A DNA stretch of 32,000 nucleotides from Candidatus Saccharimonadota bacterium. GTDB taxonomy: Bacteria; Bacteroidota; Bacteroidia; Cytophagales; Amoebophilaceae. The notes beneath the pieces are model-generated. The model worked only from the letters and a program-made list of their open reading frames with translations. It did no database searches and had not been told where the DNA came from. The first letter of the stretch is position 1, and each line of letters starts with the position of its first letter. Both the position numbers and the translations under genes were made by a program. This document shows positions 3,611 to 31,098 of this stretch, one piece after another. The stretch spans positions 360,001 through 392,000 of the forward strand of contig NZ_CP022339.1 of the NCBI RefSeq assembly GCF_003351905.1, read 5' to 3'.

Positions 3611-4987
3611 GTGATCATGAGCCAATTTGTAGTCTCTGCAAGAAAATACCGTCCTACTAGTTTTAAAGATGTCATCAGTCAGCCCCATGTTACCACCACA
3701 TTAAAGAATGCCATAGCCTCTGGGCAACTTGCACATGCTTTTCTTTTTTGTGGTCCACGTGGTGTGGGTAAAACTACTTGTGCCCGTATTTTAGCCAAAG
3801 CCATCAATTGCATACAAGTAACCGAAACAGTAGAACCCTGTAACCAGTGCACCCATTGCCTAAGCTTAAACAGCCATAGCGCTATGAATGTCTATGAGTT
3901 AGATGCAGCTTCTAACAATTCTGTGGAAGACATTCGTGAACTGGTGGGACAGGTGCGCTATGCCCCTCAAATGGGTAAATACAAGATTTACATTATAGAT
4001 GAGGTGCATATGTTGTCTAATGCGGCTTTTAATGCTTTTCTCAAAACGCTTGAAGAACCTCCTAGCTATGCCATATTTATATTGGCTACTACAGAGCGAC
4101 ATAAGGTTTTACCTACTATTTTATCTCGTTGTCAAATCTTTAACTTTAATAGAATTAAAGTAGAGGATATTGTTACACAACTCAAAGCCATTGCGGCAAA
4201 TGAGGCTATCGCTTATGAGGAATCTGCACTGCAGCTGGTTGCACAAAAGGCAGAAGGGGCGATGCGGGATGCGCTTTCCATCTTTGATCTGATCACGGCC
4301 TCTGTAGGCACAGGAGGAAAAATTACGTATGCGGCTACACGTGATCATCTCCAAATTTTGGACTACGACTATTATTTTAAATGTATAGATGCTTGCTTAG
4401 GGGGGGATATTCCTGCGGTCCTCACGCTTTATGATGCTGTTTTACGTGCAGGTTTTAATGGCCATCATTTTGTGGTAGGCCTTGGTGAACATCTACGCAA
4501 CCTATTGGTCTGCACAGACGATGCTACGCTCCCGCTTTTAGAGGTCACGGATAATATGCGTTCACGTTATGCGGAGCATGCATCTAGATGTAAGATGCCA
4601 TTTTTATTAAAAGCGTTAACACGCTTAAACCAATGTGATATAGGCTATAAGTCTAGCCAACACCAAAGATTGCATGTCGAACTGGCACTGATTGACTTAG
4701 CCACTAGTCATTTGTCTACCTCAGCAAGCACGCCATTACCAGATCAATCATTACCAAAAATAGATCATCCCCAAGCACCCATTAGTACGCAACCTAAACA
4801 AATGGATGCTGCTCCCGTTGGGTCCTCTATAACGCCACTAGCCAAGCCAAACCCCGACCATTTGCCTACCACGCCCGCCCCGGCTGCTCAGCAGCCAACA
4901 ACTATAACGATTCCTACCTTAGCAAGTTTAAAATCCACATTGACCACAAAAGAAAAAGCGCATGAGGTTGATGTAAAAAAAAAGTAG
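3611..4987 (+). CDS. dnaX: DNA polymerase III subunit gamma/tau, zero-frame product (gamma-like, 458 aa)
   Basis: Clamp-loader AAA+ motifs: SARKYRP, Walker A GPRGVGKTT, zinc module CNQCTHC, Walker B IYIIDEVHML, sensor LSRCQ. It then has a P/T/Q-rich linker and ends VKKK-stop inside an A9 run (4975-4983). The track start is GTG 3611; ATG 3617 (MSQFVVSARKYRP) is the more likely start. Confidence 0.9.
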   Translation: MIMSQFVVSARKYRPTSFKDVISQPHVTTTLKNAIASGQLAHAFLFCGPRGVGKTTCARILAKAINCIQVTETVEPCNQCTHCLSLNSHSAMNVYELDAASNNSVEDIRELVGQVRYAPQMGKYKIYIIDEVHMLSNAAFNAFLKTLEEPPSYAIFILATTERHKVLPTILSRCQIFNFNRIKVEDIVTQLKAIAANEAIAYEESALQLVAQKAEGAMRDALSIFDLITASVGTGGKITYAATRDHLQILDYDYYFKCIDACLGGDIPAVLTLYDAVLRAGFNGHHFVVGLGEHLRNLLVCTDDATLPLLEVTDNMRSRYAEHASRCKMPFLLKALTRLNQCDIGYKSSQHQRLHVELALIDLATSHLSTSASTPLPDQSLPKIDHPQAPISTQPKQMDAAPVGSSITPLAKPNPDHLPTTPAPAAQQPTTITIPTLASLKSTLTTKEKAHEVDVKKK

Positions 4988-5364: not shown

Positions 5365-5506
5365 AGCATAGATAGGCGCGTTTTTGCTTGATCCAAAAGT
5401 ATGACCTAAATTTATAACCATTCGGCTTTATTTTTATCCTTCAGGCAATGCATGGGCTGAACAGATCGTTTACACTTGCGTTGCCATTATTAAACCATAG
5501 ATCAAT

Positions 5507-6157
5507 TTGAACTATATGCATAAAGGTGTGATTATTTTGGGCGCATGCCAGCTTACAAAGGGGGCTTTAGACATTTTTCAAAAAAACAATTTAATCGTCT
5601 ATGGCATTTTAGATGATGAAACAAAATGGCATAATACCACTATTCATAACATTCCTGTTTTAGGCGCTACGGATGATCCAACCTTTCTTGAGTTACTGAA
5701 CCAGGAATGTGCTGCTTTTATCGCCTACCGTCATATCCAAAAAAGAAAAAACTGTTTAAACTTTTTAATTGCCCAACAAAAGTCCACACCCATCTCGGCG
5801 ATTCATCCATCAGCCATTATAGCGGACGGGGTGCAAATGGGTTTAGGTAATTATATAGGTGCACAGGTTTGTTTGGCTTCAGAGGCAAGTGTAGGGAACC
5901 ACTGTATACTACACAATGGGGTGGTCATCGAAGCAGAAACCCAGATCCATGATTGGGTAGAAATAGGTGCGGGTAGCATTATTGGTGACCACGTCACCAT
6001 AGAAGAAGAGGTGTTTATTGGCATAGGCGCTAGAATTATTCCGGGTGTTACGATTCAAAAGGGAGCGAGTATTGGTGCAGGGTCGGTTGTGTTAGGGAAT
6101 GTAAAAAAGGGGGATGTGTTGCTGGGAAATCCAGCAAAGTCTATTCAACAAGGATAA
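5507..6157 (+). CDS. NeuD/PglB-family sugar O/N-acetyltransferase (left-handed beta-helix, hexapeptide repeats)
   Basis: N-terminal Rossmann-like region (VIILGACQLTKGALDIF...VYGILDD...IPVLG), followed by hexapeptide repeats (IGAGSIIGDHVTIEEEVFIGIGARIIPGVTIQKGASIGAGSVV). The track start is TTG 5507; ATG 5516 is also possible. Confidence 0.75.
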   Translation: MNYMHKGVIILGACQLTKGALDIFQKNNLIVYGILDDETKWHNTTIHNIPVLGATDDPTFLELLNQECAAFIAYRHIQKRKNCLNFLIAQQKSTPISAIHPSAIIADGVQMGLGNYIGAQVCLASEASVGNHCILHNGVVIEAETQIHDWVEIGAGSIIGDHVTIEEEVFIGIGARIIPGVTIQKGASIGAGSVVLGNVKKGDVLLGNPAKSIQQG

Positions 6158-6200
6158 AAGTATCTATGCACGACATTAGTTAATAAGGCAATTTTAATTT

Positions 6201-6497
6201 GTATCTGTTCACCCAATGGCGTCAACTTAAGGATACCCCTATTGTAAAATTTAAAACCATAATGCATTTTTATTTATATTACTTTTTTCTTGATAAAAAA
6301 GTAACAAAAAATCAAGCCCTCGGCAAAAAGTCGCTGAAAGTGGCATCATACAGATGGAAAAACAGGAAGCGCCCCCTATGGGGGCTTCAAAGGAAACTGT
6401 TTTCCCAAATCATCTCTCAGATGCCACTTGCTACACCGCAACTTTTTACAGGGGCGTTGTTCTTTTAATGTAAAAAACCAGTGACTTGAACAGATAC
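6201..6497 (+). mobile_element. palindromic repeat element, copy A (MITE-like, full length, reference orientation)
   Basis: Perfect 11-bp terminal inverted repeats: GTATCTGTTCA (6201-6211) and TGAACAGATAC (6487-6497). AT hairpin ACTTTTTTCTTGATAAAAAAGT at 6281-6302. Long imperfect hairpin arms at 6316-6455 centred on GCCCCC-TAT-GGGGGC (6371-6385). Highly similar to copies at 12484-12861 (inverted) and 26445-26699. Confidence 0.8.
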
Positions 6498-6549
6498 CTA
6501 TCATTTTAATGGGCATTTGCTTCCATGCCGTCGATTTAAAGCGTTCATG

Positions 6550-6730
6550 CCAGCCGATTAAAAAAGTTGAAGCTTCAGTAAACTTGGAATCTTTAGATGA
6601 ACGGTTGTGCAAAGGATTAGAAAAACAGTTCATTAAAAGCCCACACAGTGGGTGATTTCTGTTTTTCCCGCTACACAACTGTTCGTCTCATTCCTTTACT
6701 GCATGCCAACTTTTTATTGGCGGACAGGGG
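6550..6730 (-). repeat. degenerate copy (E) of the same palindromic element, inverted relative to copy A
   Basis: GGATTAGAAAAACAGTTCATTAAAAGCCCACACAGTGGGTGATTTCTGTTTTTCC (about 6614-6668) matches the reverse complement of the centre of copy D. The flanking arms are recognisable but decayed. A degenerate AT hairpin TCTTTTTTGATAAAAAAGTG lies at 6871-6890. Boundaries are approximate. Confidence 0.55.
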
Positions 6731-6941
6731 AAACGACGTATACGCATTAGCCATTTCTATCTCTGTGTTAGAATAGATGTCCCTTACGTTCACGACATTG
6801 TCTGAATAGCAACACTGGAAAAACAGACGTTCTTTCCTAGTTTTTTATTAGAATTTGGGACAAAACTTATTCTTTTTTGATAAAAAAGTGACATATAAAC
6901 ATGACTAAAACAGACCGAAAAGCAAATTTCTACCATTACAC

Positions 6942-6970
6942 TGAACGGAAACGATTTTTGTTTCCGTTCA
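6942..6970. terminator. perfect 11-bp stem hairpin just 3' of the ankyrin ORF; possible terminator
   Basis: TGAACGGAAAC-GATTTTT-GTTTCCGTTCA lies 27 nt beyond the stop of the minus-strand ORF ending at 6997. No clear U-tract follows on either strand, so terminator function is uncertain. Confidence 0.35.
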
Positions 6971-6996
6971 CTGCTGTGGTCTAAAATTCATCTATA

Positions 6997-7440
6997 TCAC
7001 GCTTTTGGTACGGGCGCTTTTTCTTCTAAGTACTTAACTACTTCTAAGTGTTCGTTGGCCCTTGCTAGATCCAAGGGGGTCTGACCTTTTTTGTTTTTCT
7101 TGTGTATATCATCACTATGGGATTCCTCTACTAAATACTTAACTACTTCCAAATATCCCCCCTCTGCGGCTTTATGCAAAGGAATAGTATCATCTGCAGT
7201 TTCCAGATTTGGAGTAGCACCGTATTCGCATAACATTTTTATTACTTCTAAGTGACCTTTACTCGCTGCAACATAAATAGGAGATTGACCATAACGATTT
7301 CTTTGATCTACATGAACACTAATTTCTTTATTTTCTAACAACGTTTTCATCACACTTACATCACCTCCGGATGCTACCAAATGCAAAATGATATTGCCAG
7401 TTGGACCTTTATACGCTGCATCAATCCCTCCACCCTTCAA
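6997..7440 (-). pseudogene. C-terminal ankyrin-repeat portion of a split ankyrin gene (out of frame with 7449..8477)
   Basis: 147-aa ORF with about 4 ANK repeats (GQSPIYVAASKGHLEVIKMLCEYGATPN, TIPLHKAAEGGYLEVVKYLVEE, GQTPLDLARANEHLEVVKYL). It begins only with TTG and has no own signal peptide. Removing one 23-bp repeat unit fuses it in frame to the upstream ORF. Confidence 0.7.
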
Positions 7441-7481
7441 GAGCGCTTCTACAATACCTTCAAGAGCGCTTCTATAATACC
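7436..7481. repeat. 23-bp tandem duplication at the junction of the two ankyrin ORFs
   Basis: TTCAAGAGCGCTTCTACAATACC (7436-7458) is followed directly by TTCAAGAGCGCTTCTATAATACC (7459-7481), with one mismatch. A partial third match (TCCAAGAGCGAGG) follows. Confidence 0.9.
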
Positions 7482-8477
7482 TCCAAGAGCGAGGTCTTGT
7501 GCCACCATCAGAGGTGTTTTATCACTATAATTTTTGATAGTAACATCAACACCTGCCTCTATTAAGCGCTTAGCTGCCTCTTCCTGACTGGCGTATATTG
7601 CTAGATGCAAAGCAGTATTGCCAGATTCATCTGTTTCATTTAGTTTAATTTCAATACCTTCAACGCCTAGAAGAGCGTTTATAATCTCTAAGTTCCCCTG
7701 GTGGGCTGCCCGATGCAAAGCCGTTCTTTGCTCTTTATCTACTGCATTTATATTAATCTTTTTATCATTATCATTTTTACACTTTAGGAGCGCATTGACA
7801 GCAGCTAGATTACCTCCGTAACATGCCACGATGAGAGGCGTCATCTCCAAATCACCTTTTAAATTTACATCAGCCTCTACTGATTTTAAAAGTTCAACTA
7901 CAGATGCTTTGTTATCCCGTGCTGCTACATATAAAGCCGTATTGCCATCTTTATCCTTTGCATCTACATCAACTTTATCTTTATATTTAGGATCTAAAAG
8001 TAATGTTACAACTTCTACATAACCTTTTTGAGCTGCCAAGTATAGAGGTCCTTTGCCTGACTCTGGATCTGGAGTCATAACATCTAACGTTTGACTACCA
8101 GAATAATTTAGTAAAATCGCAGCTATGTCCGGATTTCCAGATGTAAGCGCCAATATAAGTGAAGTGACGTCGCCCCCTGCGTTGTTAATATCAGTCCGCT
8201 CATACCCCAGCAACACCTGAACCGCTGAACAATCATCTTTCTTTATAGCTCGGCCTAGTGCTGTTCTTTGTTTATCTACATGTTTATCTACAACCGAATC
8301 TAAAGGGTTCTCTTGTGCATCCACTCCTTGCTGCGTGTCGAGAGGCTTATCTATAGCCGAGGGTGAAGATTTTTCTTGTGTATCCATGCCTTGCTGTGTA
8401 CGCACACAAGCAAACAAGGTATTGAGGGTTAATAGCATGCGCAATAGGCCTAGGCTATATTTTATATAGGTTTTCAT
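7449..8477 (-). CDS. ankyrin-repeat lipoprotein, N-terminal 342-aa portion terminated by the duplication-induced frameshift
   Basis: Signal peptide with lipobox (MKTYIKYSLGLLRMLLTLNTLFAC), an acidic/Q-rich linker with two imperfect ~19-aa repeats (QQGMDTQEKSS.../QQGVDAQENPL...), then about 7 ANK repeats (e.g. GNTALHLAIYASQEEAAKRLIEAGVDV). Confidence 0.8.
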   Translation of the reverse strand: MKTYIKYSLGLLRMLLTLNTLFACVRTQQGMDTQEKSSPSAIDKPLDTQQGVDAQENPLDSVVDKHVDKQRTALGRAIKKDDCSAVQVLLGYERTDINNAGGDVTSLILALTSGNPDIAAILLNYSGSQTLDVMTPDPESGKGPLYLAAQKGYVEVVTLLLDPKYKDKVDVDAKDKDGNTALYVAARDNKASVVELLKSVEADVNLKGDLEMTPLIVACYGGNLAAVNALLKCKNDNDKKININAVDKEQRTALHRAAHQGNLEIINALLGVEGIEIKLNETDESGNTALHLAIYASQEEAAKRLIEAGVDVTIKNYSDKTPLMVAQDLALGGIIEALLKVL

Positions 8478-8618
8478 AGCATTTGATGTTAAATGGTTAG
8501 GTTATAGTTATCACCAAGTAGCATTACTTCAATAAAAAATTTAGGTATAAGGACCATGGCGCCAACTTGCTAAAGGCACACGTCTACGCCATGATCCGAT
8601 TCAAAAATCTAGATAGCA

Positions 8619-9296
8619 TCAGCATGGTTTATTCACATCTATCTGCTGCTTATCTAGAAAGTCCAGCACTGCTTTCTTTTCTTTGTCCCCTGTTGTCAAT
8701 TTTGATACTCTATTCCACATATTACACCCATCTGCGTCCGTTGCATTAATATGTAGGCCTGCATCAAGCCACTTTTTTATACTTTTTGGTGACCAACCAT
8801 TATCATTAAGATCTTTCACAATCTTATCCGTTATGACATTAGCATGCTCTCCAACCAATGGTGCTAGTGTAGTAGTACTACTACCCCATTGTTCTTCACC
8901 TTTTTCTATCGCATCGGTAATGAATTTTACGGTTGTATCATCTATACTGAATGGCGTAACAGTTGTACTCCCATTAATTGGCGGAAATGGTGTCGAAGTG
9001 TTTAGACCAGTACCATTATTATGGGCCATACCGGTGTTATTGCCAAGTACATAATATAACGTCCCTCCGAAGAAACCAAGTAGTATCACCCCTCCCACCA
9101 CAGATCCCGTCAAACACAATACCGGATGGCGTCTATTTACCCTAACCATACTATCCCATATAGTTCTAGAACAGCTCTTATTATGCCTCCTATTATTGGC
9201 GCCTAGTTCCTGCCTTGTGTTGACACAAGAGGTCAAAGTATTCAAGCTCAATAGTCCAATGAATAGACTTACCCTAGCATTTCTATACGTTTTCAT
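8619..9296 (-). CDS. hypothetical lipoprotein/membrane protein with one C-terminal ankyrin-like repeat
   Basis: N-terminus MKTYRNARVSLFIGLLSLNTLTSC (lipobox LTSC) is paralogous to the start of 7449..8477. There is an internal hydrophobic helix (VLCLTGSVVGGVILLGFFGGTLYYVLG), an S/T/N-rich segment, and a C-terminal GWSPKSIKKWLDAGLHINATDADGCN ANK-like unit. Confidence 0.6.
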   Translation of the reverse strand: MKTYRNARVSLFIGLLSLNTLTSCVNTRQELGANNRRHNKSCSRTIWDSMVRVNRRHPVLCLTGSVVGGVILLGFFGGTLYYVLGNNTGMAHNNGTGLNTSTPFPPINGSTTVTPFSIDDTTVKFITDAIEKGEEQWGSSTTTLAPLVGEHANVITDKIVKDLNDNGWSPKSIKKWLDAGLHINATDADGCNMWNRVSKLTTGDKEKKAVLDFLDKQQIDVNKPC

Positions 9297-9708
9297 AGCA
9301 TTTGATGTTTAATTGTATATACATAATCACTACCAAACAGAATGGCTTTCATGTATAGCTCCCCACGATCTATCCATATGACCCTATCTGTCTATCTGCT
9401 TCAATTGAATCAGGCAAAAAGCCTTAATAAGGGAGCATGGAACTTATCTATTTCATGAATCGCCCTTAACTTATTAAGTACAAAAAAATAAATACAATCG
9501 CAAATAAAAACTATAAAAGGCAGGATGCCGAATTGGACATGGAATCATGGCTTCGCCTTGTCAAGGGTGGTAGGTTTAAGGTAACACGATAACAAAACGT
9601 AGATGATAAATGGAATAGTTAGGGCAGGCTATATGAAAAACAAATACATACTTTTATATTTGAGGTTGTCTTCCTTTATACGCAAAGGGTAAAATAAAGT
9701 TTGTTGGT

Positions 9709-12462
9709 GTGCCTAAGTCTTATTTCCTACGTATCGTTGCTTTAGTACCATTTATATTTAGTGGCGTATCTGCAAAAGCAACTGCATACTTTAATTGTAG
9801 TCCCTATTTTAGTAATGGTTATAGCACTGCGTATAGAAACTGGATACAAGCCAATAACTACTTGCATACAGTCCAACCTTATGCAGCTGATAGACAATCT
9901 AACAGACTGCTTAATTTTTATAACAGCTACCGACTGCTTCCCTTATTAGCTAGTAGCAAACAAAGCGGAGAACACGTTGCAGACATGGTACACTACCAAG
10001 CAGTAGATTCAATTATTTTCGATGCTAAAAAAGACATACTTTCTTTACACGGGGCCAGTACGCTGGCCTATGATAAGATCAAACTCGAAGCAGGTATCGT
10101 AGCCCTACACTTAAAAACCCATACGCTTTGTGCAAAAGGAACCAAGGATCTGCATAACCAAGCGATAGGGAATCCTATCTTTACCTATCAGGATGTAGCC
10201 AAAAACAAATATGGTAAAGAAGGCTCTACCCAAACACGGATCTTTTTTATGGAAAGCATCCGGTATAACATCGAAACCAAACGAGCTTTAGTAGATGGCC
10301 TATTGACCAAACAAGACGAATCTATTGTCAAAGGCAAACAGATCAAAAAAGAAGATGAAACAACATTTTATGGGGAAGATATCATTTATACTACTTGCCC
10401 ACTAGCGCATCCCCATTTTTACATACGTACCAAACGCGCTAAAATAGTACGAGATAAACAAATTACTAGCGGCCCCTTTCGCTTGTACTTTGACCAGGTG
10501 CCTACGCCATTAGGCTCTGTTTTTGGCACCTTATTTCTAGAAGGCAAACGGACATATGGTATAATTCCACCAGAAATAGGGGAAGGCGAACACGGCTTTT
10601 ATCTCCGTCACGGTGGATACTATATCAATTTCAATGATTATGCGGATATTTCTATTTTAGGTAGTATATATTCTAGTGGTATTGCAGAACTTAAAAATAC
10701 GCTACGCTATAAAAAAAGATACCAATACAGCGGCAACCTACATTATACAGGCAATAGAACAGAAAAGGAGAAAGGGTGGTCTGTAAAATGCGAACATACT
10801 ACACTAAAACATGGCCCTACCAGTCTTAATGCAAAGCTTGACCTCCATAACAAATCTTATAAAACATTTGACCATGAAGATAACAAAACCCCAAAAAGCA
10901 TGGAGCAACAATGTGCTGGGAGCTTATCCTACCAGAACAACCTAATCGGCCTCCCCTATGGATTAACTGTACGCGCAGCATTTGCACTCAACCAACTTTC
11001 GAATTTTATACATTGGACCTTACCAAAGGGCACCCTATATAGTACTGCTTGGTATCCGTTTAAAATCATTCGTTCTAAGAGCACCCACCATTGGTTCCAT
11101 ACCATACAGTTAAAACATACTATAGATTTTGAAAACCACTTTCAAAATGCAAAAAAAGACACTAACCCACTTAACATAAACAACAACGCGCAAGCCATTC
11201 TTCCAACCTATCGATGGAATCATTATACAGAACATGGTGTCAAGCATTGCATACCCCTGAGCATGCAATGTAAGTTATTTGAGTTTATTAACTTAGAGCC
11301 GCATCTCATCTATAATGCAGGGTGGTACTGGCTTAAAAAGAAGACGAAAGGACCTATCCGGAAACCAGGGTTTAACCAGGTGCATACTTGGCATTTCGGT
11401 GCAACGCTAGGGACTACGCTATACCATACCCACTATTTTGAAGCAGCAACGTCGATTCAAGGTTTTCGTATTAAAATGGAGCCTAGTATTGACTTTACCT
11501 ATACGCCTGACTTCTCCAAAAAATATTGCCAAGAAGTAGAAAATACAGCAGGGGAAAAAGAAAAAAAGTATGTCTTTGCAGGACTACGACCAGGTCTAGA
11601 TGTATCGAATCGCGCTACATCTATTCTATACTGTAAACTACATAATACAGTGGAGTTAAAGATAAAAAAATCAACCAATCCAGAAAAAAAAGAAAAAAAA
11701 GAAAAAAAAAGAACCAGCCATAAAATCTTTTTGTTAAAAAACTTAGACTTTGAAGCTAAATATGACTTTCAAGCAAAGCAAGATGAATGTCATCTAGTAG
11801 ATGGCATGCATATGCATATAGCTAGCGAGGCAAAAATAGGTGCAATGGGCAAAATTTACTTTGACTTAAAAGCAAATTTTGACCCTTATCTAACTAAAAA
11901 GACCATACTAGATGATGAGCACATCAAAGAAGAACCGATCAATCATTTTGCATGGAACTGCGGTCAGCATTTATGGAAAGTGAAAAAATCCAGCTGCAAG
12001 GTCAGCATAGATCTTGCACACTATGCCCATAAAAAGAAAAAAAAAGAGCTGCTCCAAACGCATGAACAATCGGTCAGCAACATGGCAAACCATAAGATAG
12101 ACTTTGAAGTGCCTTGGAATATTGGCTCGGAGTTGAATGTAGTCTATAACAGACTATATGCATACAAGAAAGGAACAAAAAATTATAGCATAGAAAAATA
12201 TATCTCTCTTAATGGGAGTATCACTTTGGTTAAAAAGTGGAAAATTAATCTGCGTACTACGTATAATTTTAACAAAAATGAATTTGATGCATCTGCCACA
12301 GAAATTTCCATTGAACGAGATTTGCACTGCTGGCAACTTAGCTACCAATGGCATCCACTAGGCAATTCGGCTAAATATGATTTTTCTTTAGGTGTCAAAG
12401 CAAATGTTTTAAAAGTATTGAAACTACCAAGAAAAAGAAGCTATAATAAACTGCATGAATAG
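9709..12462 (+). CDS. lptD: LPS-assembly outer-membrane protein LptD/OstA-like (large Bacteroidota type)
   Basis: 917-aa ORF with signal peptide (MPKSYFLRIVALVPFIFSGVSAKA). It has an OstA-like N-domain (IIFDAKKDILSLHGASTLAYDKIKLEAGIVALHLKTHTL) and a long aromatic-rich beta-barrel-like remainder. The track start is GTG. The assignment is from remembered family features, not a search. Confidence 0.6.
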   Translation: MPKSYFLRIVALVPFIFSGVSAKATAYFNCSPYFSNGYSTAYRNWIQANNYLHTVQPYAADRQSNRLLNFYNSYRLLPLLASSKQSGEHVADMVHYQAVDSIIFDAKKDILSLHGASTLAYDKIKLEAGIVALHLKTHTLCAKGTKDLHNQAIGNPIFTYQDVAKNKYGKEGSTQTRIFFMESIRYNIETKRALVDGLLTKQDESIVKGKQIKKEDETTFYGEDIIYTTCPLAHPHFYIRTKRAKIVRDKQITSGPFRLYFDQVPTPLGSVFGTLFLEGKRTYGIIPPEIGEGEHGFYLRHGGYYINFNDYADISILGSIYSSGIAELKNTLRYKKRYQYSGNLHYTGNRTEKEKGWSVKCEHTTLKHGPTSLNAKLDLHNKSYKTFDHEDNKTPKSMEQQCAGSLSYQNNLIGLPYGLTVRAAFALNQLSNFIHWTLPKGTLYSTAWYPFKIIRSKSTHHWFHTIQLKHTIDFENHFQNAKKDTNPLNINNNAQAILPTYRWNHYTEHGVKHCIPLSMQCKLFEFINLEPHLIYNAGWYWLKKKTKGPIRKPGFNQVHTWHFGATLGTTLYHTHYFEAATSIQGFRIKMEPSIDFTYTPDFSKKYCQEVENTAGEKEKKYVFAGLRPGLDVSNRATSILYCKLHNTVELKIKKSTNPEKKEKKEKKRTSHKIFLLKNLDFEAKYDFQAKQDECHLVDGMHMHIASEAKIGAMGKIYFDLKANFDPYLTKKTILDDEHIKEEPINHFAWNCGQHLWKVKKSSCKVSIDLAHYAHKKKKKELLQTHEQSVSNMANHKIDFEVPWNIGSELNVVYNRLYAYKKGTKNYSIEKYISLNGSITLVKKWKINLRTTYNFNKNEFDASATEISIERDLHCWQLSYQWHPLGNSAKYDFSLGVKANVLKVLKLPRKRSYNKLHE

Positions 12463-12483: not shown

Positions 12484-12861
12484 GCATCTGTTCAACTCAC
12501 TGAGGTTTTGTGTGAAAAGAAGAACGACCCTGTAAAAAAGGTATGTGTTCAGCGCGATGGTTTTTTGCGTTAAAAGAACAACGCCCCTGTAAAAAGTCGC
12601 GGTGCAGCAAGTGGCATTTTACAGATGATTAGGAAAAACAGTTTCCTTTGAAGCCCCCGTAGGGGGCGCTTGCTGTTTTTCCATCTGTAAGATGACACTT
12701 TCAGCGACTTTTTACCGAGGGTTTGATTTTTTATTCCACTTTTTTATCAAGAAAAAAGTGGAATAAAATGCATTATTAACCAGTTTCGTAAATAGGCACC
12801 AATACTGTTCTATTTAACAACCTAACATTTATGCCTTAAATGGACACGATTGGTCAGATAC
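12484..12861 (-). mobile_element. palindromic repeat element, copy B (inverted orientation, with an extra duplicated terminal module)
   Basis: Terminus-like GCATCTGTTCA at 12484-12494 and a second GTATGTGTTCA at 12541-12551; the terminal module is duplicated at 12484-12540. Hairpin arms at 12583-12721 centred on GCCCCC-GTA-GGGGGC (12653-12667). AT hairpin ACTTTTTTATCAAGAAAAAAGT at 12738-12759. The far end is degenerate (TGGTCAGATAC 12851-12861). Confidence 0.7.
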
Positions 12862-12864
12862 CCC

Positions 12865-13323
12865 CTAGGCTCCTTGTTCCTCACTTTTTATGAATGCCAT
12901 AATCTCCTGCTTAATACCCATTAATTCATTATCATTAGCCAATACAATTAACATTTTTAAAAGCCTATTGTAATCCTCCATCAGCTTTAAATATTTTTTA
13001 TTCAACAGCTGAAGCTGAACAAAATATGGATCCCTGGCACTTGTCTCATCTATATATTGACACGTATCTTCTTTAGAGGCATAACCTCTAGGATCAGTAG
13101 CCTCTTCTCTACCATTTTCTCCATATATACCTGGGAAATCATTAGAAAAATCATAATGTATGACCCTACCAATCTCTATAATAAATGCATCCTTTATATC
13201 TGCTTCCTTCAGTCTGGTGTACAGGGTATTACGCGCAATACCTAACTTCTTGGCCAATGCCTTCATTCGAAAACCACTCTTCTTAATGGCTTCTTCGACT
13301 ATTTTTCCTTTATGTTGTTCCAT
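12865..13323 (-). CDS. small helix-turn-helix protein, paralog 1 (uncharacterised family)
   Basis: 152 aa. The N-terminal HTH (KGKIVEEAIKKSGFRMKALAKKLGIARNTLYTRLKEA) and the C-terminal helical region (PYFVQLQLLNKKYLKLMEDYNRLLKMLIVLANDN) are both shared with 13691..14179. Confidence 0.6.
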   Translation of the reverse strand: MEQHKGKIVEEAIKKSGFRMKALAKKLGIARNTLYTRLKEADIKDAFIIEIGRVIHYDFSNDFPGIYGENGREEATDPRGYASKEDTCQYIDETSARDPYFVQLQLLNKKYLKLMEDYNRLLKMLIVLANDNELMGIKQEIMAFIKSEEQGA

Positions 13324-13690: not shown

Positions 13691-14179
13691 TTAATATTCT
13701 TTTTCCTCATTTTCTAGGAATTCGATAATGTCTTTTTTAACGCCTACTAATGCATTACTATTGGCTAGAAGCATTAAAATTTTCAAAAGCTTATGATAAT
13801 CCTCCATAAGGCTTACATACTTCCCATTTAAGGTTTGTAATTGAAGAAAATATGGGTTTTTATATTCACTATTATAGTATGGAAGCAGATGCGATGATCT
13901 ACGACCGACAGATTTATCTAGATAAAAACGTTCAGGATGATGTTCAACTTGGGCTGCCACTCTTTTGTATACCTCCGGAAACACCTTAGAAAAATCGTAG
14001 TGTATGATGTTGCTAACATGGATAATAAAAGAATCTTCTAACTCCGCCTCCTTGAGTCTGATATAGAGGGTGTTACGCGCAATACCCAACCCCTTGGCTA
14101 CTGCTTTCATCTGGTAACCTGTTTCTTTAATGGCTTCCTCAATTATCTTGCCCTTATGTTTTTCCGTGAACTGCTCCAT
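13691..14179 (-). CDS. small helix-turn-helix protein, paralog 2 (uncharacterised family)
   Basis: 162 aa. Contains KGKIIEEAIKETGYQMKAVAKGLGIARNTLYIRLKEA ... IHYDFS ... PYFLQLQTLNGKYVSLMEDYHKLLKILMLLANSN. It is roughly half identical to paralog 1 at both ends, with a divergent middle. Confidence 0.6.
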   Translation of the reverse strand: MEQFTEKHKGKIIEEAIKETGYQMKAVAKGLGIARNTLYIRLKEAELEDSFIIHVSNIIHYDFSKVFPEVYKRVAAQVEHHPERFYLDKSVGRRSSHLLPYYNSEYKNPYFLQLQTLNGKYVSLMEDYHKLLKILMLLANSNALVGVKKDIIEFLENEEKEY

Positions 14180-16877: not shown

Positions 16878-16991
16878 CTGTAAAATGCCACTTTCTACAC
16901 CGCAACTTTTTACAGGGGCGTTGTTCTTTTAACGCAAAAAACCAGTTACTTGAACAGATACCTAATAAAAACCACTGCGCTGAACAGATAC
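16878..16991 (+). repeat. palindromic repeat element, copy C tail fragment (right arm plus duplicated terminal module)
   Basis: CTGTAAAATGCCACTTTCTACACCGCAACTTTTTACAGGGGCGTTGTTCTTTTAACGCAAAAAACC matches the right arm of copies A/B/D. The terminus TGAACAGATAC occurs twice (16951-16961 and 16981-16991). The left arm is missing. Confidence 0.7.
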
Positions 16992-17036
16992 GTGCATATA
17001 GCTATTGCGCAGCAACCTTTTTTGTCTCTAACTGAC

Positions 17037-17100
17037 GATACTGTTGAATAAAGCAATTTTATTTTTACTTTTTTCTTGATAAAAAAGTGGCTAAAAAACC
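17037..17100 (+). repeat. palindromic repeat element, head fragment (variant terminus plus AT hairpin only)
   Basis: GATACTGTTGA (a variant of GTATCTGTTCA) at 17037-17047, followed by ACTTTTTTCTTGATAAAAAAGT at 17067-17088 and GGCTAAAAAACC. Similarity to the family ends after this. Confidence 0.5.
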
Positions 17101-17221
17101 AACGACTGGAATAAATACCTTTTTCTAAGGCTTGCAAGTATGCAAACGCATACACTTTTTCTTTAAATTAGGCTATAAATTAAAAGTTTTAAACACCTAA
17201 CCAAAGCTTGGCTGGATTTAC

Positions 17222-20952: not shown

Positions 20953-23283
20953 ATGTTAGTTATAAAACGAGATGGACGCTTAGAATCAGTTAAATTCGAT
21001 AAAATAACCGCTAGGATAGACAAGCTCTGTTATGGGCTAAATAGAGATTATATTGATACCATAGCTATTGTTAAAAAAATTATTGAAGGCATTTATGATC
21101 AGGTCACCACTTCAGCGATAGATAACCTGGCGGCAGAAACGGTAGCAACAATGGCTGTATACCATCCAGATTATGCCATTCTAGCGGCGCGTATAGCTAT
21201 TTCTAATCTACATAAAGAAACGAGTAAATCTTTTTCTAGCACAATAAAAAGGCTCTATACCTATGTCAATCCTTCGACTGGGCAGCACGCTGCCCTTATC
21301 GCCCCTGACGTTTATAAAATTATTGCCAGCCATGCTGCAACTTTAGACAATTCCATTGTACATGAACGTGATTTTACCTATGATTTTTTTGGTTTTAAAA
21401 CATTGGAGCGTTCTTATCTGCTTAAAATAAATGGCAAAGTTGTGGAACGTCCGCAGTATATGTTGATGCGTGTAGCAGTAGGCATTCATGGTGATGACCT
21501 AGACGCTGTGCTTGAAACCTATCAACTCATGTCTGAAAAGTGGTTTACCCATGCCACACCTACGCTTTTTAATGCAGGCACACCCAACCCACAGCTTTCT
21601 TCCTGCTTTTTATTAACGATGCAAAGTGACAGCATTGAAGGTATTTACAACACCCTTACACAATGTGCCAAGATATCTCAATTTGCTGGCGGCATTGGAT
21701 TAAGCATTCATAATATACGTGCTACAGGCTCTTATATTCGAGGGACCAATGGGATTTCTAATGGGATTGTCCCCATGTTGCGAAACTTTGATATGACGGC
21801 GCGCTATGTAGATCAAGGAGGAGGCAAACGAAAAGGTAGTTTTGCCATCTATCTGGAGCCTTGGCATGCAGATATCTTTGACTTTCTAGAGTTGAAGAAA
21901 AACCACGGCAAAGAAGAAAGAAGGGCCCGGGACCTGTTCTATGGGCTATGGATTCCAGATTTATTTATGCAACGTGTAGAAGCAGATGAGAGGTGGTCTC
22001 TCTTTTGCCCCAACGAAGCACCAGGGCTCTCGGACTCCTATGGCACGGCATTCGAGCAAAAATACAAACAGTACGAAAAAGAAGGAAAGGCACGTGCCTC
22101 TATCAAAGCACAAACACTTTGGTTTGCTATTCTGGAGTCTCAAATAGAAACCGGAACTCCTTATATGCTCTATAAGGATGCAGCCAACGAAAAGTCTAAT
22201 CAAAAAAACTTGGGTACTATAAAGTCTAGTAACCTATGTACAGAGATTATGGAATATACTGCACCAGATGAAATTGCGGTTTGTAACCTTGCCTCTATTG
22301 CGCTACCGATGTATGTAGATGCCAATCGATCTTTCGATCATACCAAATTATATAGGGTTACCTACCTGGTCACCAAAAATCTTAACAAGATCATCGACCG
22401 TAACTATTATCCTTTAGCGGAAGCACGTACCTCTAACTTAAGACACAGGCCGATTGGTATTGGGGTACAGGGATTAGCAGATGTTTTCCTAAAAATGAAA
22501 CTTGTTTTTGACAGTCCAGAAGCACGGCTGCTCAACCAAGAAATTTTTGAGACCATCTATTTTGCTGCATTAACGGCTTCTAAAGATTTGGCACAAAAAG
22601 AGGGAGTATATGCAAGCTACGCTGGTTCACCCATTTCGCAAGGCATCTTACAATTTGACATGTGGGGCGTAGCGCCTGCCTCTGGCAGATGGGATTGGGA
22701 TCATTTACGTAAGGAAATAGGCGCGCATGGCATCAGGAATTCCCTATTGGTGGCACCCATGCCAACCGCCTCTACTTCTCAAATACTGGTTAATAACGAA
22801 TGTTTTGAACCCTATACCGCCAATATTTACACCCGCAGGGTGCTTTCTGGCGAGTTTATTGTGGTCAACAAATACCTATTGGAGGACCTCATCGCACTTG
22901 GCCTTTGGAATGAGCAGGTGAAAGAAGAGTTGATGATGGGCAATGGCTCCATTCAACAGATTGCCTGTATTCCGCAATACATTAAAAACCTATATAGAAC
23001 GGTTTGGGAAATTCCTCAAAAGTCTATTATCGATATGGCGGCAGATCGCGCACCTTATATTTGTCAAAGCCAAAGCCTCAATCTCTATGTGCAAGATGCA
23101 ACTATGGCTAAATTAACCTCTATGCATTTTTATGCTTGGAAAAAGGGGCTGAAAACAGGGATGTATTACTTACGTACCAAAGCAGCAGCAGATGCTATTA
23201 AATTTACCATACAAAAGAAAGAAAAAACAGCCCCCCCCTTACCGAATGAAGGGGAAAAAGAATGTTTAATGTGCAGTGGCTAA
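20953..23283 (+). CDS. nrdA: class Ia ribonucleotide reductase large subunit (R1, eukaryote-like type)
   Basis: N-terminal ATP-cone ([20 protein letters not shown]), catalytic regions ([23 protein letters not shown]), and a C-terminal redox-shuttle pair CLMCSG. Confidence 0.95.
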
Positions 23284-23337
23284 GCAACTTAATTGTATAT
23301 TAATTTTTGACTTTTTAATCAAAACGGATGCTCATTT

Positions 23338-23916
23338 ATGTTTAATATTATTCTAGTGGGCCCTCCTGGGTCTGGAAAAGGCACACAAGCTAAACGAATG
23401 ATTCAAAAATATGGCTTTATACCCATTGCTTTGGGGGCCTTGCTGCGCCAACAAATGGCAGAAAATGGGGCGAATAAAAGGCTCATTGAGCCATACATCA
23501 ATAGTGGGCAATTGGTACCAGATCACCTCTCTTTTGAATTGGTCAAACAACTGGTGCAAGCACAACCTGCCGATACATCTTTTTTATTTGATGGTTTCCC
23601 TAGAACCCTAGCACAGGTCTCCTTCTTAACGCATTTTTTAAAACCATGCAATGCGCAAATAGATGGTGTAATCTTGCTAGATGTGCCCCAAGAGGTCTTA
23701 TTAAAACGGCTTAAAAATCGCGCTACCATTGAGTCAAGAGCTGATGACCAGGATGACAACAAGATTAGAACACGTATGCAGATATACGAACAGGAGACGT
23801 TACCTATGGTCAACCATTATAAATCCGAAGGGAAGCTATATAGTGTAGATGGCACACAAGATGTAGATGCGGTAACCCAGTCTATTGAAACCATTATGGA
23901 TAGACTCAGACCTTAA
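23338..23916 (+). CDS. adk: adenylate kinase
   Basis: P-loop GPPGSGKGTQ, an NMP-binding region (GALLRQ...G.LVPD), FLFDGFPRT, and a short LID (RADDQDD). Confidence 0.95.
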   Translation: MFNIILVGPPGSGKGTQAKRMIQKYGFIPIALGALLRQQMAENGANKRLIEPYINSGQLVPDHLSFELVKQLVQAQPADTSFLFDGFPRTLAQVSFLTHFLKPCNAQIDGVILLDVPQEVLLKRLKNRATIESRADDQDDNKIRTRMQIYEQETLPMVNHYKSEGKLYSVDGTQDVDAVTQSIETIMDRLRP

Positions 23917-23921
23917 CGACC

Positions 23922-24908
23922 ATGTCATTACCCAACTTTATTGATCACGTTAAGCTTTACCTACGCGCTGGTAAAGGGGGAGCCGGATTAGTCCATTTCA
24001 TGCGTGCCAAGTTTGTGCCCAAAGGCGGGCCAGATGGAGGGGACGGTGGTAGAGGCGGCCATATCATTTTACGTGGTGCCAAACAACGTAATACGTTGCT
24101 CCAACTTAAATACCGAAAACATATCCTTGCAACCAATGGGGAACCGGGTGGTGATAGCTGCAAAACAGGTGCAAGCGGGAAAGATGTGCTCATAGATGTA
24201 CCATTGGGCACAGTAGCCAAAAGAGTAGATGATGACCAGGTACTGGTAGAGGTATTAGAGGACAAAAAAAAATATATCTTAATGCAGGGGGGAAAAGGAG
24301 GTTGGGGCAATGCCCATTTTAAAACCCCTACCCATCAAACACCCCGCATCGCTTATCCAGGTGAAACGGGCATGGAAGGCTGGATGGTATTGGAATTGAA
24401 ATTATTAGCGGACGTAGGCCTTGTAGGGCTACCAAATGCAGGCAAATCTACATTGCTTTCAGTTGTATCAGCGGCTAAACCACGCATTGATAGTTATCCG
24501 TTTACCACTTTAGTACCCAACCTTGGTGTAGTAGCCTACCGGGCAGACCATTCTTTTGTAATGGCAGATATTCCAGGGATTATAGAGGGTGCAGCGGCTG
24601 GAAAGGGCTTAGGGACACGGTTCCTACGCCATATTGAACGGAATGCCATTTTATTATTTATGGTTAGCGCAGAATCCAATGATATCCATAAAAGCTATGA
24701 AATGTTACTGAGCGAATTGGAAGCACATAATCCCTCATTGCTAGCCAAACCCAGGTTGCTGGTTGTGTCAAAAATAGACTTGCTAGACCAAACAACACGT
24801 AAAACCTTACACTTACCTCCAGACATAACCTGTTGCCCTATCTCTGCCCATACGGGAGAAGGTATTGTACGCCTTAAAGACCTTATCTGGGAAAAACTTT
24901 CTGTCTAA
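23922..24908 (+). CDS. obg: GTPase Obg/CgtA
   Basis: Obg-fold N-domain with glycine-rich repeats (GGAG, GGPDGGDGGRGG, GGKGGWGN). G domain motifs G1 GLPNAGKST, G3 DIPG, G4 SKID. Confidence 0.95.
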   Translation: MSLPNFIDHVKLYLRAGKGGAGLVHFMRAKFVPKGGPDGGDGGRGGHIILRGAKQRNTLLQLKYRKHILATNGEPGGDSCKTGASGKDVLIDVPLGTVAKRVDDDQVLVEVLEDKKKYILMQGGKGGWGNAHFKTPTHQTPRIAYPGETGMEGWMVLELKLLADVGLVGLPNAGKSTLLSVVSAAKPRIDSYPFTTLVPNLGVVAYRADHSFVMADIPGIIEGAAAGKGLGTRFLRHIERNAILLFMVSAESNDIHKSYEMLLSELEAHNPSLLAKPRLLVVSKIDLLDQTTRKTLHLPPDITCCPISAHTGEGIVRLKDLIWEKLSV

Positions 24909-26402
24909 GTGGTTACCATGCACAATACGGTTAAAACACTTGGTAAAGAAACCATTATATATAGCATCAGCAACATTATTATACGCGGATGTGGTTATTT
25001 GGCTTTGTTGCTGCAAACCAATATACTACCGCCTAGCGCCTATAGTATAGTTATAGAGTTCTATGGGAGTTACATTGCTTTGGGTCATGTGCTTTACGAC
25101 TTGGCCATGGATATGACCTATTTTAGATTCGTACATAGATTAGGCAAACAACATACTTTCAATATAATTGTAACTATATTACTGGTTTCCAGCCTTATTT
25201 TTTCAATATTACTCATCCTATACACACCACAAATCGCAAAGCTCACCAACCACCTAGCTCATATGCGTTATTTCTATTATATGGCTGGGATTCTTATGCT
25301 GGATACGTTATTGATGATTCCCTACGCGAACCTACGTGTAGAAAAAAAGACCCTTTGGTTTCTGTTGGTGAAAGCTGTACAAGCTTGTGCGGGCATTATT
25401 TTTTCTTTTATTTTATTGTATTGTCCGGTAGCCTTAAGATGTATAGCCTATGGCATGTATCATTATTTGCATCTACCTGTACATTTGAATGGGATAGATG
25501 CTGTTTTTATAGCTACTATATTGTCTAATATAACCGCTTTGGCCTTTCTACTACCCAATTTTAAAGGCTTTCATTTGGTTTGGAACAAGCGTACGATGCA
25601 AACGATAGGCGGTTATGCAGCCACTTCTTTTTGCACCATGCTATTTGTCAGACTTAATGAGACCTTACCGCTATTATTGTTTCGCAAATTGGTTCCGAAT
25701 AACTTTTATAGCGCCCATACAAAGGAAGAAATATTAGCTAATTTTGGCACTGCCTGTAAGCTAACGGTGTGTATTACACTAGGCATCCAAGCCTTTAAAC
25801 ATGCTGCAGAACCATTCTTTTTTGCCCACTTAGGGCGCAAGGAGGCACTAAAGTTATACCGCCAAACGATGCATTTATTTATACTAACGTCCTGCTTTTG
25901 CCTATTGTTGTTTAGTGTAAACATAGATTGGGTAGCAAAAATTCTGATTCCGAATCCAAGATACCGGCATACCATTGACGCCGTCCCTTATTTAGCATTT
26001 GCACATATTATCTTAGGTGTCTATTACAACCTGAGTGCTGCTTTTAAATTAAGTAATCATCCACGATATAATACTTGGATCAGTGCATTGGGCAGCCTAG
26101 TGATCGGGTGCACGGCACTGCTATTGATACCGAAACTGGGTCATTGGGGTTGTGTCTACGCCTCTATAAGTGGTGCAGCCACTATGGGGCTACTGGGGTA
26201 TTATACGGGTCAAAAGTGTTATCCAATACCTTACCATAAGGGTAGTTTTTTACTTCTTTTGGGTTGCTTTTTAGCATTGCATCCCATTGTTTTATGGCGC
26301 AATACACTCACTTTTTTAGGAGCAGGATGGAGCTATGCACTCCTACATACTATCATTTTAGTCACTTTTTATAGGATAGCCATTAGATGGAAAAAGGTGT
26401 GA
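24909..26402 (+). CDS. polysaccharide/oligosaccharide flippase-like polytopic membrane protein (Wzx/MOP superfamily)
   Basis: 497 aa and highly hydrophobic, with roughly 12-14 predicted TM segments. The family call comes from architecture and composition only. The start is GTG 24909 abutting the obg stop, or ATG 24918. Confidence 0.55.
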   Translation: MVTMHNTVKTLGKETIIYSISNIIIRGCGYLALLLQTNILPPSAYSIVIEFYGSYIALGHVLYDLAMDMTYFRFVHRLGKQHTFNIIVTILLVSSLIFSILLILYTPQIAKLTNHLAHMRYFYYMAGILMLDTLLMIPYANLRVEKKTLWFLLVKAVQACAGIIFSFILLYCPVALRCIAYGMYHYLHLPVHLNGIDAVFIATILSNITALAFLLPNFKGFHLVWNKRTMQTIGGYAATSFCTMLFVRLNETLPLLLFRKLVPNNFYSAHTKEEILANFGTACKLTVCITLGIQAFKHAAEPFFFAHLGRKEALKLYRQTMHLFILTSCFCLLLFSVNIDWVAKILIPNPRYRHTIDAVPYLAFAHIILGVYYNLSAAFKLSNHPRYNTWISALGSLVIGCTALLLIPKLGHWGCVYASISGAATMGLLGYYTGQKCYPIPYHKGSFLLLLGCFLALHPIVLWRNTLTFLGAGWSYALLHTIILVTFYRIAIRWKKV

Positions 26403-26444
26403 AGCTTCAACAGAAGTGAGACATTTTCATTTTCCATTTTAGGT

Positions 26445-26699
26445 GTATCTGTTCACATTACTGATTAATAATGAACTTTATCCCCCTTTTTTCTTGATAA
26501 AAAAGTGGACAAAAAATCAAGCCCTCGGTAAAAAGTCGCTGAAAGTGGCATCTTACAGATGGAAAAACAGAAAGCGCCCACTACGTGGGCTTTTAATGAA
26601 CTGTTTTTCCTAATCATCTCTCAGATGCCACTTTCTACACCGCTACTTTTTACAGGGGCGGTTTTTTTGAAGCAAAAAACCATCGCGCTGAATACATAC
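26445..26699 (+). mobile_element. palindromic repeat element, copy D (full length, same orientation as copy A)
   Basis: GTATCTGTTCA at 26445-26455 and TGAATACATAC at 26689-26699 (2 mismatches to the consensus terminus). AT hairpin at 26486-26505. Hairpin arms at 26521-26659 centred on GCCCAC-TAC-GTGGGC (26576-26590), followed by GGTTTTTTT. Confidence 0.8.
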
Positions 26700-26744
26700 A
26701 TTTGAAGCAATCAGCCTATTATATTTAATTCACGCGACATCAGC

Positions 26745-28562: not shown

Positions 28563-28668
28563 GTAATGTTTTATTTTAATAGATGTTTAGGTTACTGTTT
28601 TTTTTAAAACAAGACCAAGGTAAAAAAGAGTGGTCTATCTATATGCAACCGTGCTAGAGCGCATAGCG

Positions 28669-29376: not shown

Positions 29377-29390
29377 ATCACTTAAGCCAT

Positions 29391-29657: not shown

Positions 29658-29727
29658 GTAATATAATTGAATTGAGATATTAAATATAATTTAATTGTAT
29701 GCAAGATACTACTTTTTTATATATCAT

Positions 29728-31020: not shown

Positions 31021-31098
31021 TAAAAATTAATAGGGCAATTGTATAACACAATATACGGCTGCCATTGGGCTAGCATATTACTATTTTTTGTTCAGAAA

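Follow-up and report, generated by a model that had tools for sequence, protein, structure and literature searches.

A probable MITE family dispersed between the genes of Cardinium endosymbionts

Background

A palindromic sequence of some 250–300 bp recurs between the genes of a 32,000-nucleotide stretch of bacterial DNA (the whole stretch is called the window here), and the question raised by this locus is what kind of element the sequence is, by which route its copies were dispersed, and whether it still moves or has been put to use by its host. The original prediction, made from the letters of the window and its open reading frames, described a dispersed noncoding repeat with 11-bp terminal inverted repeats that behaves like a MITE/REP-type element, is accompanied by no transposase in the window and could be assigned to no named family. 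Cardinium genomes are of interest for host reproductive manipulation and for the shrinkage and rearrangement of endosymbiont genomes, and their repeat content is known to confound both assembly and annotation.

Over 605 residues, the BipA protein encoded in the window shows 100% identity to AXI24125.1 from cSfur, the Cardinium symbiont of the planthopper Sogatella furcifera. Its identity to the BipA of Cardinium sp. TP, a strain living in the mite Tyrophagus putrescentiae, is 97.7%. As the GC content of the window (~40%) also fits the 39.2% published for cSfur (cSfur genome paper), the window is almost certainly a part of the cSfur chromosome. Other loci gathered from Cardinium DNA are referred to by L numbers, with L132 and L134 being the TP loci orthologous to the window.

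Results and discussion

Repeat units of the window

The window contains seven units of one noncoding repeat family, distributed over five intergenic regions. Copies A, B and D were recovered by self-comparison at the positions originally predicted for them, with mutual identities of 87–89% over 200–248 nt (BLAST E 1e-69 to 1e-86), and the 11-mer TGAACAGATAC was observed seven times in the window at ≤ 1 mismatch, while 0.55 occurrences were expected in shuffled sequence. The repeats are confirmed as real and far above chance level, and their similarity is not confined to runs of A and T. The units, together with one lone motif, are as follows (positions of the window):

5379..5467 (approximate start), plus strand: decayed short form with the AT-palindrome variant GTTTTTGCTTGATCCAAAAGTATG and the right-end-like GCTGAACAGATC at 5456-5467; the orthologous TP site keeps the unit
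6201..6497, plus strand: copy A, an 'A2' variant; its left junction is also present in TP (L134:7206)
6201-6233, within copy A: alternative 33-bp left end GTATCTGTTCACCCAATGGCGTCAACTTAAGGA, followed by an AT-rich linker
6280-6303, within copy A: AT palindrome
~6317-6454, within copy A: long imperfect hairpin with its GC-rich apex at 6371-6385, followed by a T/A-rich module
6476-6497, within copy A: right inverted repeat
6498..6813, minus strand: E unit, a complete member of a related ~316-bp 'E-type' subfamily, adjoining the right end of copy A
6869..6903, plus strand: lone AT-palindrome motif TTCTTTTTTGATAAAAAAGTG, of uncertain membership in the family
12484..12861, minus strand: copy B, an A2 variant
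16878..16991, plus strand: copy C1, 5'-truncated, comprising the 3'-terminal 84 nt of the element (16878-16961) and an extra 30-bp right end (16962-16991)
17024..17118, plus strand: copy C2, a 95-bp short form with a degenerate left end, the AT palindrome fused to the right end and no long hairpin
26445..26699, plus strand: copy D, a canonical 255-bp unit flanked by a 497-aa gene and bipA, the 3' ends of which converge on it

This inventory revises the first description in several places. The presumed decayed inverted copy at about 6550-6730 is instead the complete E-type unit at 6498-6813, which has a long hairpin of its own and the apex common to the family (GGAAAAACAG..GCCCAC..GTGGGC..CTGTTTTTCC) and is 85% identical to L005:11411-11722 over 313 nt. 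The C fragments are two units, the one at 16878-16991 being present as proposed and the second being the short form C2, the flanks of which (CCTTTTTT and CTTTTTCT) match at six of eight positions when judged by eye. What had been read as a solo terminus at 5456-5467 is indeed terminus-like, but forms the right end of the decayed short form with its palindrome variant. Copy A has the expected ends, but it is a variant with a different 33-bp left terminus.

In copy B, the 57-bp right-end module is present as a tandem duplicate (12484-12540 and 12541-12597), and the left end of the unit (12851-12861) lies 3 nt past the stop codon of ORF 12865-13323. On the 3' side of the lone palindrome motif, an unrelated hairpin with 29-nt arms was observed (6924-6988), and the sequence beyond the motif is not repeated elsewhere.

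Anatomy and size variants

Twelve full copies, taken from cSfur, TP and a plasmid of DF, were aligned to derive the layout of the element. A canonical 'A-type' unit measures ~255 bp and is bounded by terminal inverted repeats of ~22 bp (GTATCTGTTCAnnnyAnTGGTT, with the start GTATCTGTTCA), its left end GTATCTGTTCACGTTACTGGTT and right end AACCAGTGACTTGAACAGATAC agreeing at 20 of 22 positions. The 11-bp terminal repeats of the original prediction are perfect in copy A (6201-6211 and 6487-6497), but the canonical copies have the longer ones. The left end is followed by a short spacer, the AT palindrome CCACTTTTTT-CTTGAT-AAAAAAGTGG and an A-rich linker, and then by an imperfect hairpin of ~150 nt, the upper part of which consists of AGATGGAAAAACAG, a GC-rich stem-loop and CTGTTTTTCC..ATCT. 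The apex of this hairpin is made up of an A-tract, a GC stem-loop and a T-tract, and a T/A-rich module precedes the right end. Units of 59, 92, 255, ~300–380 and ~316–325 bp occur, all of which have the terminal 11–22 bp in common; the forms other than the canonical one are:

Mini form, 59 bp (L005:4246-4304): a simple hairpin of the two inverted ends alone
Short form, 92–95 bp (L005:3036-3127; window 17024-17118): the ends and the AT palindrome
A2 form (window copies A and B; L001:3545-3859; L005:3382-3606; L132:11899-12195): an extra 33-bp left terminus GTATCTGTTCACSCAATGGCGTCAACTTAAGGA before a degenerating inner left end
E-type, 316–325 bp (L005:11407-11727; window 6498-6813): a different long hairpin with the same apex

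An extra 30-bp right end (CTAATAAAAACCACTGCGCTGAAYACATAC) is recurrent in the family, nested and abutting units occur, and the junction between an A and an E unit was seen again in TP at L003, L001 and L132. The units are nearly always intergenic, mostly at ≤ ~50 nt from stop codons, and were found in both orientations relative to the adjacent genes. In the window, the genes around them are housekeeping genes as well as genes for ankyrin-repeat proteins.

Coding capacity

Copy A gives rise to an open reading frame at 6199-6468, the frame of which is broken by 3–6 stops in each of 11 other aligned copies, and a Pfam scan of this ORF returned no match; on both grounds the element is noncoding, as had been proposed, and the copies do not form part of a conserved coding gene. 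When the window was searched against Rfam 15, only two tRNAs reached the gathering threshold and nothing was returned below E = 1 over 6100-7050, so that the element matches no Rfam family. In agreement with the first description, Pfam and NCBIfam scans of 28 window ORFs (≥ 80 aa) identified no transposase; the other window ORFs, including 23338-24908 and 28669-29657, were annotated solely through the Pfam labels of their TP orthologues.

Distribution among Cardinium strains

Further copies of the family are present in other Cardinium genomes, namely in strain TP, in plasmid p_A of DF (a diverged copy with a perfect duplication) and in cOegib, where the copies are diverged or fragmented and one of them is interrupted by an ISCca2 insertion. 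In addition, the Cardinium of Tipula unca holds one 52-bp unit similar to the mini form. A scan of a genome collection, from which cSfur itself is absent, with the core pattern of the element gave matches in Cardinium sp. TP only, and BLAST against plasmids found the one diverged copy on DF plasmid p_A, with no match for an E-type query. No match was obtained when viral contigs were scanned with the core pattern (0 matches). The inverted-repeat pattern GTATCTGTTCANNNNANTGGTT hit at least 120 loci in metagenomes, and none of the matches listed contains the element according to nhmmer, so that these hits are attributed to chance and to the looseness of the pattern. The family was not encountered in 13.8 kb from a further C. 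hertigii strain, nor in the 22-kb region of the DF chromosome that is orthologous to the window, where only one end-like 20-mer was present. Extrapolation from the sampled loci of cSfur and TP (~1 locus per 6–7 kb) suggests a number of loci in the order of 100–150, which would correspond to a few percent of a 1.1-Mb genome.

Target-site duplications and the mode of dispersal

In the flank test, the 8 nt on each side of the unit were compared for 16 boundary sets from 13 different elements whose outer ends are defined, three of the elements being represented by two sets each. Perfect agreement over the eight positions was seen around the unit L004:266-523 (TGTGCATT) and around the copy on the DF plasmid (CAAACTGA), agreement at seven positions in two further sets and at six in one, i.e., 5 of the 16 sets reach at least 6/8, a level attained by 2% of mismatched flank pairs. 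The majority of copies in these 16 sets are without a recognisable duplication, for which the age of the insertions, recombination between copies, or intramolecular events of the IS6 type could be the cause. Target-site duplications of 8 bp point to insertion by a staggered-cutting enzyme and thereby to a MITE and not to REP/RAYT spread, which narrows the MITE/REP-type designation given at the outset. The units are dispersed at non-homologous sites, being all that the window and L001–L004 have in common, and at least 20 units are contained in ~85 kb of TP. We therefore consider it very probable that the copies are those of a non-autonomous transposable element and form a MITE family that is native to Cardinium (Amoebophilaceae, Bacteroidota). 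The flanking duplications indicate that the units were inserted by an enzyme making 8-bp staggered cuts, and a DDE transposase encoded at some other place presumably moved them in trans.

Two other origins of the repeats were weighed against this reading. Several features recall REP/REPIN repeats, which would have been spread by a RAYT (HUH tyrosine) transposase in place of a DDE enzyme: the units lie densely packed between genes, two inverted ends make up the simple hairpin of the 59-bp mini form, and the GTAT...ATAC tips are reminiscent of the GTAG/CTAC heads of REPs. However, HUH/RAYT transposition leaves no target duplication, in contrast to the 8-bp duplication found here, the units are far longer and more modular than REPs, and no Y1 transposase was detected among the Pfam-scanned ORFs of the window and of L001, L002 and L004, so that we regard such an origin as barely credible.

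It is also highly improbable that the units are structured noncoding RNA genes or cis-regulatory RNAs, with their ends acting as a closing helix and their copies having arisen by duplication and not by transposition. Strong folding (z = -5 for the sense and -8.1 for the antisense strand), an asymmetry between strands in 9 of 12 copies and compensatory changes at 7 of 53 pairs would be expected of an RNA, but a single diverged copy contributes almost all of these changes, and the covariation term (+1.65) is slightly unfavourable. Moreover, the units are flanked by 8-bp target duplications, insert into or against each other, include forms of 59–92 bp that are wholly devoid of the hairpin, and lie in both orientations relative to neighbouring genes, while neither an Rfam match (by gathering or E-value threshold) nor, on reading the sequence by eye, a Bacteroidota-type promoter was seen.

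Age, shared insertion sites and an inversion

Copies A, B and D as well as the decayed unit at 5379-5467 have their counterparts at the same junctions in TP (for copy B, the LptD-side junction is the common one, L134:12766), and these insertions thus pre-date the split between cSfur and TP. The comparison of insertion sites between related strains, suggested together with the original prediction as a search for presence/absence polymorphism, hence covered four sites, all occupied in both strains, and recovered no empty one; as these sites are not polymorphic, mobility is deduced from the duplications and the dispersed copies. Identity between cSfur and TP is 86.4% at four-fold degenerate sites (863 sites) and 83–86% between positional orthologues of the element, and paralogues are on average 86–87% identical (91.7% for the closest pair), which means that the copies drift at approximately the neutral rate and give no sign of recent jumping. 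The family is old, with a transposition burst around or before the cSfur/TP split. It appears by now to be transpositionally quiet in both strains and to serve mainly as a substrate for recombination.

The units are structurally unstable. At one site, an A2 and an E unit in cSfur stand against a canonical A unit followed by an unrelated hairpin in TP, and the right-end module of copy B is present twice in cSfur versus once in TP. One copy also marks an inversion breakpoint between these two sister strains. A segment of ~6.6 kb whose orientation differs between TP and cSfur is bounded in TP by two copies inverted to each other (L132:5048-5293 and 11899-12195), and both TP–cSfur alignments pass through copy D, the left flank and first ~45 nt of which track TP copy 1, while its remainder and right flank track TP copy 2. 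Copy D is a hybrid of these two TP copies, a pattern that is the signature of inversion by homologous recombination between inverted copies. Intramolecular transposition of the IS6 type also yields inverted copies that bound an inversion, but the two TP copies are only 85% alike, which makes homologous recombination a better explanation of the inversion than copy-in at a recent date. The finding bears on rearrangement in symbionts and involves no new mechanism of such elements.

Conservation of internal modules

Diversity among 11 cSfur and TP copies amounts to 0.02 in AGATGGAAAAACAG, 0.06 in the AT palindrome and 0.09 in CTGTTTTTCC..ATCT, compared with 0.15 overall, and rises to 0.28 in the right end on account of the two subtypes present there. 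A control for A/T content left a 2–3-fold reduction (0.048 and 0.092 vs. 0.156 and 0.209; block permutation p = 0.0006), and predicted paired columns are less diverse than unpaired ones (0.07 vs. 0.20), although these comparisons are partly circular, as the modules were picked after viewing the data and one alignment served both to predict the structure and to measure diversity. The GC apex varies in sequence with its pairing kept (GCCCCC/GGGGGC, GCCCAC/GTGGGC, and GCCCGC/(T)CTCGGGC in DF), and it was flagged by a scan for terminator-like signals on the minus strand of copy A and on both strands of E, the spacer on the sense strand being 11 nt. A purely selfish, dead element would not predict an AT palindrome and an upper stem that are 2–3 times more conserved than the remainder of the unit.

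Two readings fit this conservation, either a transposition constraint acting on master copies or the use of the units by the host as a bidirectional terminator-like signal. If the latter applied, the element would have arrived by transposition and would now be kept for internal modules that serve the host, with the core of A-tract, GC stem-loop and T-tract possibly working as a bidirectional intrinsic terminator or 3'-end stabiliser and the AT palindrome with its invariant CTTGAT loop as a putative protein-binding site. The low diversity of the AT palindrome and of AGATGGAAAAACAG after the base-composition control, the smaller variation of paired columns, the apex that changes and stays paired and its terminator-like appearance would all agree with such a use, as would the location of ~7 of 13 copies between convergent genes and of one between divergent genes (gene tables), and the better folding of the antisense strand in 9 of 12 copies. 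Constraint on master copies accounts for the conservation equally well, however, and the post hoc choice of modules and the derivation of the structure from the same alignment weaken the comparison. Besides, the sense-strand T-tract is 11 nt away from the GC stem, which is non-canonical for a terminator, positional orthologues have, taken as a whole, diverged at the neutral rate, and an enrichment at convergent 3' ends is usual for any tolerated insertion. On balance, domestication appears doubtful, and a terminator-like hairpin at gene 3' ends is put forward as a possible present-day role.

A broader scenario can be formulated, in which the AT palindrome and the A-tract/GC-hairpin/U-tract core would be under purifying selection across Cardinium and would have been recruited, in a genome that is shrinking, to terminate transcription in both directions or to bind proteins at the 3' ends of genes, and in which the family would have been spread by an IS6-type copy-in transposase whose intramolecular events, along with recombination between copies, would drive the inversions that scramble gene order. 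Taken jointly, these propositions are unlikely to hold.

Candidate parents of the probable MITE family

For the MITE family as such, a parent transposase was sought in ~200 kb of Cardinium DNA, in which no transposase gene bounded by the family ends was found (gene tables, Pfam and NCBIfam scans), and tblastn with the IS26 transposase gave no match in the gathered Cardinium loci. The best candidate, proposed tentatively on sequence resemblance, is an IS6-family enzyme similar to that of ISCca2. This candidacy is based on the 8-bp duplication, on cTGTt at end positions 5–9 and on the match of one end type to ISCca2, the resident IS6 element of cOegib: the E-type right end GTATCTGTCGTTTTAAT shares 12 of 17 positions with GGTTCTGTCGCGTTTAT, the inverted repeat of ISCca2, an agreement with a chance of ~3e-4 per comparison by a rough binomial, several comparisons having been made. 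The similarity to the ISCca2 ends is thus only partial, and no IS with the family ends was found.

Elements of the IS6 family produce 8-bp target repeats, have GG tips, cTGTt at positions 5–9 and a caaa motif, frequently lack duplications, and include two catalogued MITEs (PMC7986276). The present family is similar in its 8-bp duplication, in the frequent absence of a recognisable one and in CTGTT at positions 5–9, which is the register of IS26 and ISCca2, whereas its tip is GT (GTATCTG...) and not GG in all well-preserved copies, and the caaa motif is partial, with CAA or CAC at the expected place. Two further candidates were discarded, namely an IS5-like element with unrelated ends in the Cardinium of Tipula unca, and two HTH_8 ORFs adjoining copy B, which look like small regulators and not transposases. 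Duplications of 8 bp are likewise made by IS66, IS256, ISL3 and IS1595, which are further candidate parents. The inner part of the E-type end, TCAACTTAAG, may resemble an IS231 end.

Relation to known elements

MITECca01 and MITECca02 of cOegib derive from ISCca4 of the IS982 family and have the ends ACGTGAATTCGGGATT and ACCTGAGTTCGGGATT; MITECca01 is described as a recently active element confined to cOegib, and neither of the two was reported from any other Cardinium (Halter et al. 2022, PMC9769881). They are comparable to the present family in host genus, in a size of ~240 bp and in being gene-less, bounded by inverted repeats, mostly intergenic and abundant, and the two kinds of element coexist in cOegib. 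The end ACGTGAATTCGGGATT is, however, unrelated to GTATCTGTTCA, and in contrast to the cOegib-restricted and recent MITECca01, the family described here occurs in cSfur, TP, DF and cOegib and looks old. Identity with MITECca01/02 was rejected, as their published ends are absent from the window at ≤ 3 mismatches and repeated in cOegib locus L137.

Outside Cardinium, the Correia elements (CREE/NEMIS) of Neisseria, ERIC, RUP and the Rickettsia palindromic elements are also short, gene-less and hairpin-forming, and crowd intergenic DNA. They do so in host-restricted bacteria, adjoin gene ends and can bear terminator- or promoter-like signals. On the other hand, TA is the target duplication made by Correia elements, and the palindromic elements of Rickettsia are inserted in frame within genes. 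The sequences of these elements are unrelated to the present family, which has an 8-bp duplication and a long hairpin that is internal and no extension of the inverted repeats.

The family is undescribed in the papers on the cSfur genome, DF/TP, cBtQ1 and the Amoebophilus IS elements as well as in the 2025 Cardinium review, and a full-text search with its sequence strings returned no relevant paper. This MITE family is thus apparently new to the literature covered, the only described Cardinium MITE being a different one specific to cOegib. A consensus of the family would aid annotation, the development of strain-typing markers and tests of MITE-borne hairpins as terminators in reduced genomes. 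GenBank already mis-annotates such elements, for instance in two 'hypothetical proteins' that a protein search with ORF 6199-6468 found to be called over other copies.

Inversion between cSfur and Cardinium sp. TP

A segment of approximately 6.6 kb carrying bipA, radC, rpsT and their neighbours is inverted in cSfur (the Cardinium of Sogatella furcifera) with respect to Cardinium sp. TP (from the mite Tyrophagus putrescentiae), and copies of the noncoding MITE-like repeat coincide exactly with both breakpoints in this comparison.

Alignments across the inversion (cSfur window, then the orthologous TP locus L132)
26444-32000, aligned with L132:6573-12157
21398-26682, aligned with L132:1-5287

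The bipA (typA) gene lies at 26745-28562, and its nearest homologues outside Cardinium (70-75% identity) belong to Rickettsiaceae and 'Candidatus Tisiphia'. Because these closest relatives are not Bacteroidota, the sequence comparison suggests an old horizontal transfer of bipA among co-resident endosymbiont lineages.

Genes and repeats around the copies in the window

Features of the cSfur window
3611-4987, dnaX ORF, 458 aa
5026-5364, separate ORF following dnaX, 112 aa
6869-6988, lone AT-palindrome motif (a conserved inner module of the repeat), then an unrelated hairpin (29-nt arms)
6997-8477, minus strand, pair of neighbouring ankyrin-repeat ORFs of 147 and 342 aa
7434-7479, 23-bp tandem repeat
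8443-8529 and 9262-9348, 87-nt direct repeat, 70% identity
12865-13323 and 13691-14179, minus strand, tandem paralogous genes, 152 and 162 aa

In both cSfur and TP, dnaX is apparently split into the longer ORF and the separate 112-aa ORF, the latter bearing DUF8439 in TP, and Cardinium DF encodes a single 571-aa DnaX that includes this domain. In cSfur and TP the gene could be frameshifted or split; alternatively, its layout could be a programmed one of the tau/gamma kind.

The two ankyrin ORFs are separated by 8 nt, at the perfect-looking 23-bp tandem duplication, and the orthologous TP region is broken up into four small ORFs (58-126 aa); decay of the ankyrin gene may be under way in both genomes. 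Two genes, the ankyrin gene (7449-8477) and one for a 225-aa membrane protein (8619-9296), have the 87-nt repeat just upstream of their starts, and it may be a 5' or promoter region common to both. Just downstream of the ankyrin gene lie the AT-palindrome motif and the 29-nt-arm hairpin, and TP carries at the corresponding place a different hairpin, whose apex is of the GAAAAACAG type (L134:7462-7600). No second copy of either hairpin turned up in the sampled DNA.

The tandem paralogues share 71-73% DNA identity (window self-comparison, families D1 and D3), and both have a Fis-type helix-turn-helix (HTH_8) at the N-terminus followed by a coiled-coil-like tail; neither matched an NCBIfam model. 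Repeat copy B begins 3 nt past the stop codon of the first (12865-13323).

Repeat-related sequences elsewhere in Cardinium

In Cardinium DF, the end-like 20-mer GTATGCGTTCAATGTTATGG was found within L135:6700-6860, downstream of a hexapeptide transferase gene, approximately 50 nt past the stop codon and near the position matching cSfur copy A, and is followed by the apparent C-terminal ~35 codons of an HTH-containing (possibly Rpn-like) protein.

Public annotation calls hypothetical proteins across noncoding repeat copies, e.g., GenBank V3581_00520 (TP, L005:10001-10372) and a 133-aa cSfur protein (P0002). Several TP copies adjoin putative tRNA genes (L005:3140-3215, L005:11760-11840, and L004 at about 190-265), recognized by eye from their T-arm sequences.
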